Of a DNA stretch of 64,000 nt, positions 1-49,787 are shown piece after piece. Numbering within the stretch: position 1 is the first letter of the stretch; every line of letters starts with the position of its first letter. The stretch lies in contig OX597821.1 in the NCBI GenBank assembly GCA_951406725.2, positions 36,704,001-36,768,000 of the forward strand, given 5' to 3'. Made by a program: the position numbers and the translations under genes. The stretch is from Octopus vulgaris. Lineage: Eukaryota. The notes beneath the pieces were generated by a model that saw only the letters and a list, made by a program, of their open reading frames with translations, did no database searches and was not told where the DNA came from.

Positions 1-481
1 TTCCCCTCTCTCCCTCACGCTTTCTCCTTGTCTCTCTTGTTGCTCACACGTGACCAACGGCTATCTATCTTTCTTTCTTCCACTTCCTTCCTAAAGACAA
101 GACGTGCTTTTGACTGTCTCTTTTCAAAGCTCGCTTCTCCAGCGTTCACCACTTTACCTCGTTATGGCTCAACAGCCTTTCCCGTTTCTTTTTACTATTT
201 GTTTACACTATCCTGTTTTTGTCACTACTTTAACCCTCCACAAATCCCAATATTTTTTTAATTTGCTTTACGGGAACGACTGTTTTAAGGAAGTCGCGTC
301 CTGCTCCTACGTTCGAAACGCGGAGTAGATAAAACTGATGAAGGGAATGTTCGTTATGTTGCCTGTCTCATTTCTCTATTTGTTTCTTTTGTTGTTCGAA
401 AAAAAAAAGATCGTTTTCCATGTTTTTGTTTTGTATGTTCTCGTTTCTCATTTTGTTCACGTTCTTTTGACGTCCTGTACC

Positions 482-8625: not shown

Positions 8626-8664
8626 ATGTATGTATGTATGTATGTATGTATGTATGTATGTATG

Positions 8665-10113
8665 TATGTATGTATATACATATATGGTGAATGAAAGACG
8701 GAAGATGAAAAATACGAGAATTTTTATTAATCACGACCATTGTTTCGACACATCTAGCATCGATCCCTTCCGGGCGGGATACTTAACAACTGATTCAGGA
8801 GCATCCGACGATGCAGATGTGTCTTTTCGGGTGGGTAAAATAGATATAACTCGTTAAAATCACAGTTCCGCAATGTATCTTCTTGTTTTGTGTAAAGATA
8901 AGCAGCAAAACAAAGCTATATTTTCATTTCTATTGCTTGTTACTTGCTAGACTTTATCACTTTCGATCCTGATCGTTCTTTGCAGTGCGAACCACTGTTT
9001 GGTGTTGACGATTCCCCGCTTACTAATTCGCTAATACGATCTCAGTAAGCTTGGCGCGCTGGGAACGGCACGTTCAAACGTTCAGGTGTCCCTCCCTATG
9101 ATTTTATTTTGGTTGACTGTACAGATTACAATTTTGTGGTATGCATACCCAACTATTTTAAATCGTGGACATCTTATGTTATCTTTGTCTATTGGCTTAC
9201 AGAATACTCTAAGTACAAACTAGAGGACTCGATGCGGTTTGTCCGCGCCCACACGGATACATTCGGGATATTCAGTCGGTGTCTGTCAGACAGCTGGAAA
9301 CACTTGAGTAGGTTTGAGAGATTTTTGCATTCCACACACCCATCAACTAGTCCCCGATCTATCATGCATGCCTGATGACGTTCGAATTACATAAAAGCAC
9401 TGAAGTGTGGGACGTTCCTGGGAATCATCCTCTTTCAGTAATATATTTCTATCTGTTTCTTTTGGCATTGCAATACTTACAGCTACCACAGCAATACGTA
9501 TTATCATATTAGTAAACTGATTAAGAACACATATATGATCAATTTAATTATAAGCGTGACGGTCCAGTTTTCTTCGTTTGTGTTCTTTTGTTTGTTTTCT
9601 TTCCCCACGATTTAAAATAGTTGGGTATGCATACCACAAAGCTGTAATCTGTACAGTCAACCAAAATAAAATCATAGGGAGGGACACCTGAATGTTTGAA
9701 CGTGCCGTTCCCGACGCGCCAAGCTTACTGAGATCGTATTAGCGAATTAGTATGCGGGGAATCGTCAACACCAAACAGTGGTTCGCACTGCAAAGAACGA
9801 TCAGGATCGAAAGTGGTAAAGTCTAGCAAGTAACAAGCAATAGAAATGAAAATATAGCCCTTGTTTTGCTGCTTATCTTTACACAAAACGAGAAGATACA
9901 TTGCGGAACTGTGATTTTAACGAGTTATATCTATTTTACCCACCCGAAAAAACACATCTGCACCGTCGGATGCTCCTGAATCAGTTGTTAAGTATCCCAC
10001 CGGGAAGGGATCAATGCTAGATGTGTCGAAACAATGATCGTGATTAATAAAAATTCTCGTATTTTTCATCTTCCGTCTTTCATTCACCATATATGTATAT
10101 ATACACATACATA
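8665..10113. repeat. About 505-bp inverted repeat (8665-9168 / 9605-10113) with 436-bp spacer; each arm carries an HHR-like motif
   Basis: The ORF track gives near-identical peptides on opposite strands (MVNERRKMKNTRIFINHDHCFDTSSIDPF). Arms end at aatcgtgg/ccacgatt and are flanked by (TATG)n/(CATA)n. Confidence 0.9.
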
Positions 10114-10181
10114 CATCTAAGACATTATCCCTTGTGTTTCTCCTGTTTAAAATCGATTTTATTACTAATTCTAGTAGGCTG

Positions 10182-22199: not shown

Positions 22200-22607
22200 A
22201 ACTTGGAGAAGAGAAAGGCAAAAAAAGCCCGTATTGTCTGTTTCCTATACTGTTTCTTTATTGTACTGTTTTTTCTTCATTTTATTGTACTGTTTTTTTC
22301 TTCATTTGTATTGTTTTTTCTTCATTTGTATTGCTTTTACGTCCTGTTTTTGTCACTTGTTTTACCCCTCTGCAAAAGAATTTTATTTAATTCCTTTTGC
22401 AGGAAGGACTGCTTCGACTGTGTTCTGTCCTTACCTTTGAAACACACTTTGAGTCGAACTAGGGACAGCTGATGAAGGGCAATTTTCCTTGTATTGTTTG
22501 TCCTGTACTCTGTTTTTTCGTTGTTTAAAAAAAGTCCGTTTCCTGGTTTGATTTTATGTTCTCGTCTCTCGTTGTGTTCTACGTTTATTTGTGGTGTCCT
22601 GTACTCA
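22200..22607 (+). mobile_element. Short non-coding element between (TA)n tracts with a rearranged hammerhead motif (copy 2)
   Basis: (TA)n on both sides; homologous to 1-483. Confidence 0.7.
22389..22484 (+). ncRNA. Candidate non-circularly-permuted hammerhead-like RNA, copy 2 (best preserved)
   Basis: Stem II gaagg(22403-07)/ccttt(22434-38). Stem III tgtgt(22419-23)/acaca(22442-46). GUU 22422-24. Stem I ctgtcctta(22425-33)/tagggacag(22460-68). GAAA 22439-42. CUGAUGA 22469-75. Confidence 0.65.
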
Positions 22608-23296
22608 TATATATATATATATATGCATGTATATATACATGTAGATGTAAGTATGTACATATATGTATGTATATATGCATATATTTTATTTATTTATTAT
22701 ATTACTATATATATATATATATATATATATGAGCAAAACGCCCCACCCCCACCCCACCGTCCAATGGACGGTGCTGAGTTGTCAAACATTTAAACCAAAT
22801 TTTCTCAAAACAACTTGTCCGACCGTCCCATAGGCCTCCCCTTGAGAAACACTGATTTAACCTAAATTTGGAGACACCAGCAAAAGAAGAAATATAGATA
22901 TCGATCGCAACAGCTGATGTACTTGCGCGTACAAATGCACATTCCCACGGCTTTATCGATCGCATTCTCATCCGGAATCGATTTTTGTAATTTTTTCAAG
23001 ACTTATACACGCCCTGATACCGTCGGTATCTACATATCAAATTTGGGCGCATCGGATGCAGGATGCCCGAGACCCTAGACGACACACACACACAGACAGA
23101 CAGAACGGATTTTATATAATAGATATACATAAACATATATATATATATATGCATAAACATATATATACATATATACAAAATTTAGAGGACTGACCACTAA
23201 AAGTGGACAGCCTTTATGCTAGATATTTTTTTTAAATATGCTAGGCCACTGGTTCTAATTGATTAATATCAATTTCTACCCTTATTTAATTTTATA

Positions 23297-49536: not shown

Positions 49537-49787
49537 TATACAAAATGGGACAACAAAACATCCAGATAGACGATACAAAGAAAACAAGGACGGGTCATTC
49601 GAAGTTTTCTTTCCTCAGTCGAGTACCAGATTATCTTCGCAATTTCGGCTGGATACTCGTCTGAGGAAAGAAAACTTCGAATAACCCGTCCTTGTTTTCT
49701 TTGTATCGTCTATCTGGATGTTTTGTTGTCCCACTTTTGTATACCCTAACTGTCCGGATGTTTTGCGTTCTCGTCCCATTTTGTATT

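Follow-up and report, generated by a model that had tools for sequence, protein, structure and literature searches.

A hammerhead-like motif was modelled at positions 22365 to 22480 of a 64,000-nt stretch of the Octopus vulgaris genome (contig OX597821.1, positions 36,704,001 to 36,768,000 of the forward strand; hereafter the window). Very likely, the motif is a cis-acting hammerhead of the reverse cycle that is opened at a new point and marks the 3' terminal repeats of Naiad-type elements and non-coding repeats. From 5' to 3', the proposed order would be the first strand of helix X (X'), hairpin Y, the 10.x strand of stem II, the first strand of a tie helix, a block with stem III, UH and stem I, a short linker, a block with the second stem II strand, GAAA and stem III, the second tie strand, and the second stem I strand with CUGANGA, followed by X. 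As covariation shows, the crossing of stems II, III and I is the ABCABC arrangement of type SGC. On the sequence comparisons below, the split-core fold is well supported as a structure, and the enzyme is a candidate.

All features of the window copy lie on the forward strand. The core words listed by the first-pass annotation were recovered base by base: U16.1 and H17 at U22423-U22424, G12-A13-A14-A15.1 (GAAA) at 22439-22442 and CUGAUGA at 22469-22475. They abut stems I, II and III as in a hammerhead, with stem II reached through an upstream strand. Stem III, also described there, was present between 22420-22423 and 22442-22445 (in the segments 22420-22424 and 22434-22445), and the predicted cut lies 3' of 22424; H17 was A, C or U and never G, as the descriptor dictates. 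The placement of the stem II partner upstream of the cleavage site held as well: GAAGG at 22403-22407, starting with G10.1 (22403), pairs with the 11.x strand at 22434-22438, and covariation across families backs the pairing. Stem I had been given nine pairs between 22425-22433 and 22460-22468; these form in this copy, one as G-U, and the conserved stem I has 4-8 bp. By pairing and copy alignment, the segment 22425-22433 consists of a conserved 1.x strand (22425-22430) and a short linker, and 22460-22475 holds the 2.x strand and the core; the ninth pair depends on T22460, which is C in most family copies. A stem I running into stem II without any linker was not borne out, as conserved forms have 1-7 nt there, mostly 2-4. 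Nor is the linker from stem III to the second stem I strand very short: it has 17 nt and pairs as a further helix, here called the tie helix (22413-22419 with 22452-22458, 7/7 pairs), which connects the strand that follows stem II with the one that precedes stem I and corresponds to the 'I' helix of type SGC. Because this linker is long enough to form its own helix, no need was found for the dimer that had been suggested.

The extra helix claimed directly after A9 exists, with a different conserved partner. Its 3' strand (22476-22480) pairs with 22365-22369 as helix X, with 4/5 pairs in the window and 5/5 in family copies, and it is part of the L003 MFE structure; the fifth base of the 3' strand, G in 27/30 loci, is changed here. 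The partner proposed earlier, 22389-22397, can pair with 22476-22484 (8/9 here, 9/9 in the family majority sequence). As a conserved model this helix was rejected: it reached nine pairs in only 1/8 families and competes with hairpin Y, to which 22389-22397 belongs. Hairpin Y (22370-22402; 22370-22378 with 22394-22402, 9 bp) sits directly between X' and G10.1, and 3/7 of its pairs change on both sides. X follows A9 directly, Y directly precedes G10.1, and 0-2 nt separate X from Y. Pseudoknot-free folding of 22389-22484 alone gave a z of -0.53, and inclusion of X' gave -2.9 (-3.3, -1.6 and -1.4 for loci L003, L265 and L119). The G10.1-C11.1 pair is important for the hammerhead. It is G-C in 26/30 family loci and G-U in the window copy, whose private changes are at 11.1 (C to U) and in helix X; because of these changes the copy is probably impaired as a predicted ribozyme.

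The motif belongs to a Penelope-like non-coding repeat of family A (22216-22710, forward strand, aligned to 29 other loci), a 5'-truncated copy of ∼500 bp of a unit of about 760-900 nt. (TA)n tracts flank it on both sides, and 22200-22216 holds, on the reverse strand and beside (TA)n, an inverted short copy of its 3' tail, recognized as the reverse complement of other copies' 3' ends; by its sequence, this arrangement is typical of Penelope-like insertions. Family A and its kin comprise 5'-truncated copies, partial tandems and inversions, with tail-to-head junctions at 5/30 family A loci and a tandem spacing of 824-875 nt in sibling families. The best 40 of 3174 candidate places in the 2.8-Gb genome were 94-100% identical. 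Patterns for sibling families gave 2214, 1011 and 778 matches against 0 for controls (reversed patterns for 2214 and 1011), so that family copies beyond chance, for which a search had been proposed, do exist; a looser pattern gave 507 matches against 89 in its control and exposed more distant families. On this sequence evidence the window element is a truncated Penelope-like repeat copy with thousands of relatives. No coding frame owned by the unit was seen in the family loci read, neither GIY-YIG nor RT lay upstream of the motif in the window element or in sampled loci of families A-J, and no RT gene joined to family A was found. The element shows the (TA)n targets, partial tandems, inversions and tail of Naiads, features also common to other PLE clades.

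The repeat search in the window was dominated by microsatellites. Two further copies were found by sequence comparison: a broken copy of family B' (207-480, forward strand), which has a compensated GAACG/CGUUC stem II and has lost the stem I 2.x strand, and a copy of family I (49588-49651, reverse strand), which starts 3' of its predicted cut and is fused to an inverted arm. The window also contains a long inverted repeat at 8658-10116 with arms of ∼510 nt that are 96-97% complementary. In several families, a CACGTGA-like motif, possibly an internal promoter, precedes the ribozyme by a few hundred bases (window 45-60; L061, L070, L072). Other families in this genome carry canonical, Penelope-style type I hammerheads (L033, L059, L175, L052, L162), which often adjoin the split-form repeats.

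The evidence for the upstream stem II strand comes from families in which the 11.x strand and a segment ∼35-44 nt upstream change together. The observed 11.x/upstream pairs are CCUUC/GAAGG, CGUUC/GAACG, GGUGC/GCACC, GGCAC/GUGCC, UGCUC/GAGCA, UGGGC/GCCCA, CAGCC/GGCUG and GUGUC/GACAC, which makes eight distinct pairs, or seven if CCUUC and CGUUC are merged. Both strands were 5/5 complementary in all 10 subfamilies, and off-diagonal combinations reached 1-3/5 except for near-identical strands. A perfect upstream partner was present in 115/142 members and in 0.8-6.7% of shuffled windows. Because the best match defined the partner, the shuffle is the fair test, although shuffles ignore relatedness. 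The 25-pair model was 97.4% paired in 11 natural copies, a value reached by 0/500 shuffles, and slid controls gave 37-48%. Fourteen of the 25 pairs change on both sides in these aligned copies, 3/5 of them in the case of stem II, which bears out the covariation asked of the stems across copies. The core was required by the search patterns and the descriptor, and its invariance is partly a result of this construction. For old genomic families, the parse of individual copies was poor (for instance 5/30 and 3/21).

An independent set was obtained from metagenomes, where an alignment of 13 Naiad-type RTs led to 65 loci. Downstream of the RT, in sense, 19 loci carried the split form, 4 carried type CSG, none a canonical type, and 42 had no hammerhead; among the 48 loci with tails of at least 400 nt, the counts were 17 split, 4 CSG and 27 without a hammerhead. 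The split form was absent from antisense tails, from 121 kb of coding sequence in sense and from 1.27 Mb of shuffled tails, and the background consisted of three GSC matches in coding antisense and one CSG match in shuffles. In the 19 motifs, whose pairs were counted by script and several of which are near-duplicates (L244 equals L279, and L252 resembles L255), stem II had 5-6 bp, at each of which as many as four pair types occurred, G10.1-C11.1 was kept in 19/19, and the tie helix had 4-15 bp in 19/19. X, Y and the tie helix could be parsed in 18/19. The X plus Y score was matched by at most 5/300 shuffles in 13/19 and by at most 15/300 in 16/19; the automatic parse of X and Y failed for L239, and L243 and L255 gave a weak one.

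The RTs that carry the split form were 33-67% identical to the query, and GIY-YIG (EN) lay upstream of the RT in 7/8 split-form loci with more than 1.7 kb of upstream sequence and never downstream. The same architecture, N-terminal GIY-YIG and C-terminal RT, was found in the relatives P0002, P0045 and L142. In the Naiad-type proteins P0024 and P0045, GIY-YIG and RT are followed at the C terminus by a ubiquitin hydrolase domain (PF00443), and the tails of L258, L264 and L280 contain a similar ubiquitin-hydrolase-like coding sequence 3' of the RT. In an RT tree of 33 rows (32/65 loci with long matches and long tails, and one outgroup), the type CSG loci (L261, L263, L266 and L271) formed one clade (92/99) and the split-form loci fell in two others. 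The base of the tree is not settled, and therefore no order of events is claimed.

Naiads are described as lacking canonical hammerheads, and eight of them, two being cephalopod elements, are marked 'HHR_half_core', a half core being placed within the 3' UTR, with the other half 35-50 nt away (PMC8557442). This absence has served as an argument that such elements can do without the ribozyme. From the accessible supplement, 58/62 places with CTGATGA, 30/43 with CTGAAGA, 15/25 with CTGAGGA and 15/23 with CTGACGA were inspected. By eye, the full split form was found at nine Naiad 3' ends, namely Naiad_Obim, Naiad_Ovul and seven others, three of which precede the headers Aacu, Anas and 1_Movir and four of which have no visible header. 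Of the remaining ends, one was partly split, type CSG accounted for six, several of them next to nematode headers, and about six further core-bearing ends matched neither form clearly. At several ends, S- and G-like blocks precede CUGACGA in arrangements that differ again, block G possibly being split.

The octopus genome itself has a family that matches, by eye, the end of Naiad_Obim. Its Naiad RTs are decayed; the split form lay downstream in sense at 9/30 Naiad RT loci, and a decayed form at 5/20 more distant RT loci. L191-L194 hold a young Penelope-like element whose 775-aa RT-EN frame is intact; it has an overlapping upstream frame and is present in many identical copies. At L081, a family H ribozyme lies directly behind an RT fragment, with the EN part inverted beyond a (TA)n tract. 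Pfam gave nothing above the cut-off for the two L081 fragments, and family H as part of an RT-then-EN element was discarded, the motif being the own 3' end of such an element in 0/30 EN loci. The junction is treated as chance or unexplained.

Further evidence comes from the starts of truncated copies. Blocks G and C were the sole criterion for choosing 72 family A copies, of which 16 start at most 9 nt 3' of the predicted cut, one of them exactly at C1.1, and 2 start in the next 13 nt; 14 of the other 56 start in the next 90 nt, upstream (p = 7e-10, or 5e-4 without nine copies that end 0-2 nt from the anchor). A second sample of 30 copies, which overlaps the first in part and was chosen by nothing but the C block, has 11 starts within 42 nt 3' of the cut, followed by 5 of the 19 remaining over the next 100 nt; this is a step of three- to fourfold without a sharp peak. 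The pile-up fits templates whose 5' end is the predicted cut, and an RT stalling in the tight fold could also give such a spread.

These data bear on three other explanations. In a plain type SGC hammerhead, the strand after CUGAUGA would itself supply stem II, with one inserted base, and the match upstream would be a competing, regulatory pairing. Families A-E could form G-C, G-U, G-U and (G-C) in this way, the window copy could form A-U, G-U, G-U and G-C without an insert, and one-base inserts are known in SGC ribozymes (PMC10085705 supplement). However, this direct pairing, also tried as a conserved model and rejected, gave no more than two Watson-Crick pairs in any of the 10 subfamilies (0-1 in three) without clean compensation, and only 0-3 pairs in the 19 metagenome motifs, so that the plain SGC reading appears highly improbable. 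Scarcely more probable is that a dimer or tandem hybrid is the active form, one copy lending its stem II or CUGAUGA strand in trans. Partial tandems 824-875 nt apart would bring such strands together, and minimal Penelope hammerheads reportedly cleaved as dimers in one study. Against this, helix X joins the 5' and 3' ends of a single 116-nt unit, the linkers resemble those of types SGC and CSG, which cleave during transcription, and no conserved palindrome is needed.

The motif might instead be a conserved fold that does not cleave, a hammerhead-derived signal for protein binding or priming. The A9/G10.1 break falls at a metal site of the hammerhead, many Naiad loci lack the split form, and the intact RT-EN element of the octopus genome had no CUGANGA in sense in 4/4 copies. 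On the other side, the catalytic positions and G10.1-C11.1 are all kept across the divergent carrier RTs, and copy starts accumulate 3' of the predicted cut. We consider this explanation unlikely, and a cleaving, cis-acting split-core hammerhead is preferred.

Hammerheads are described as built from three blocks named G, S and C, the last of which comprises a stem I strand, CUGAnGA and a stem II strand; the blocks are assumed to be uninterruptible, and types SGC, CSG and GCS have been validated (Eckert et al., 2023, PMC10085705). Apart from one GCS candidate in a bacterium, none was found in a known organism's genome. The reversed order recognized and the pseudoknot considered in the first-pass annotation were correct, and with these types already described the reverse cycle is not new as such. 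Its expectation that descriptors for types I-III miss the motif was right, the cyclic order being S-G-C and not C-G-S. The Rfam comparison it had called for gave no hammerhead match at the gathering score in the window or in 15 loci, and E ≤ 10 gave only chance matches. The published SGC descriptor demands that CUGAUGA(U)G immediately precede stem II and that no more than 15 nt link G to C, and for these reasons it cannot find the window motif. Type SGC (HRIMA-1) shares the S-G-C order, the ABCABC crossing, a ∼3-nt I-II linker and a helix that ties stems I and II, and it cleaves in vitro (PMC10085705). Unlike in that type, where block C is uninterrupted but for an insert of 0-2 nt, block C is split here, the 10.x and tie strands lie at the 5' end, and helices X and Y are added; the present motif occurs in thousands of copies in an animal-type genome, whereas SGC was found only in metatranscriptomes. 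Type CSG, described from two tested examples, shares the cyclic order but is opened between G and C with A9 and G10.1 joined (PMC10085705).

The Naiad 'HHR_half_core' elements (PMC8557442) share the (TA)n targets, inversions, tail and 3' UTR half core; here, in contrast, the halves fold into a model of a complete permuted ribozyme, and the window element has no ORF. The pseudoknot (PK) hammerhead (Zhan et al., 2024, PMC11300833) has an extra helix and a pseudoknot around helix II as well, but follows the normal cycle, with G10.1 directly after A9. Non-LTR retrozymes and type I Penelope hammerheads also form non-coding tandem units with one hammerhead each, but with type I topology, which was absent from the tandem units of the family loci, and not the reversed split form. 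Core inserts have been reported elsewhere in the hammerhead (PMC3088659), and one preprint contains type I models only (bioRxiv 10.64898/2026.07.22.740005). In the accessible literature, including PMC13725137, PMC10162972, PMC13159263, PMC5737381 and PMC10827157 (subscription papers lay mostly outside its scope), we found no tested or solved hammerhead split at A9/G10.1 and none permuted in Naiads. The A9/G10.1 break bridged by X and Y and the link to Naiads remain new in the literature searched.

From the pairings, we propose a backbone break between A9 and G10.1 that X and Y clamp. X would stack on Y and bulge where other hammerheads tolerate one extra base, a stack that would allow the normal core, with the G12 base and the G8 2'-OH acid, to form and cut after H17. 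Circular permutation of type CSG/SGC could have produced the motif, for which a tandem CSG unit would be a ready source, and tandem transcripts would be cut into unit-length templates. In its widest form the proposal reads that this is a seventh hammerhead architecture and the commonest Naiad ribozyme, present in several animal phyla, derived from CSG in tandems, cutting in vivo and spread by non-coding repeats to thousands of copies; we regard this as probable.

If the model is true, the assumption of three indivisible blocks in six orders (PMC10085705) falls, and A9/G10.1 would be a core position that accepts whole helices, useful for ribozyme switches. The dozens of diverse natural sequences supply material for cleavage testing. 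Non-circularly permuted ribozymes would be moved into animal genomes, where reverse-cycle hammerheads would be abundant and not metatranscriptome rarities, and a direct answer is offered to why Naiads seem to be without hammerheads (PMC8557442).
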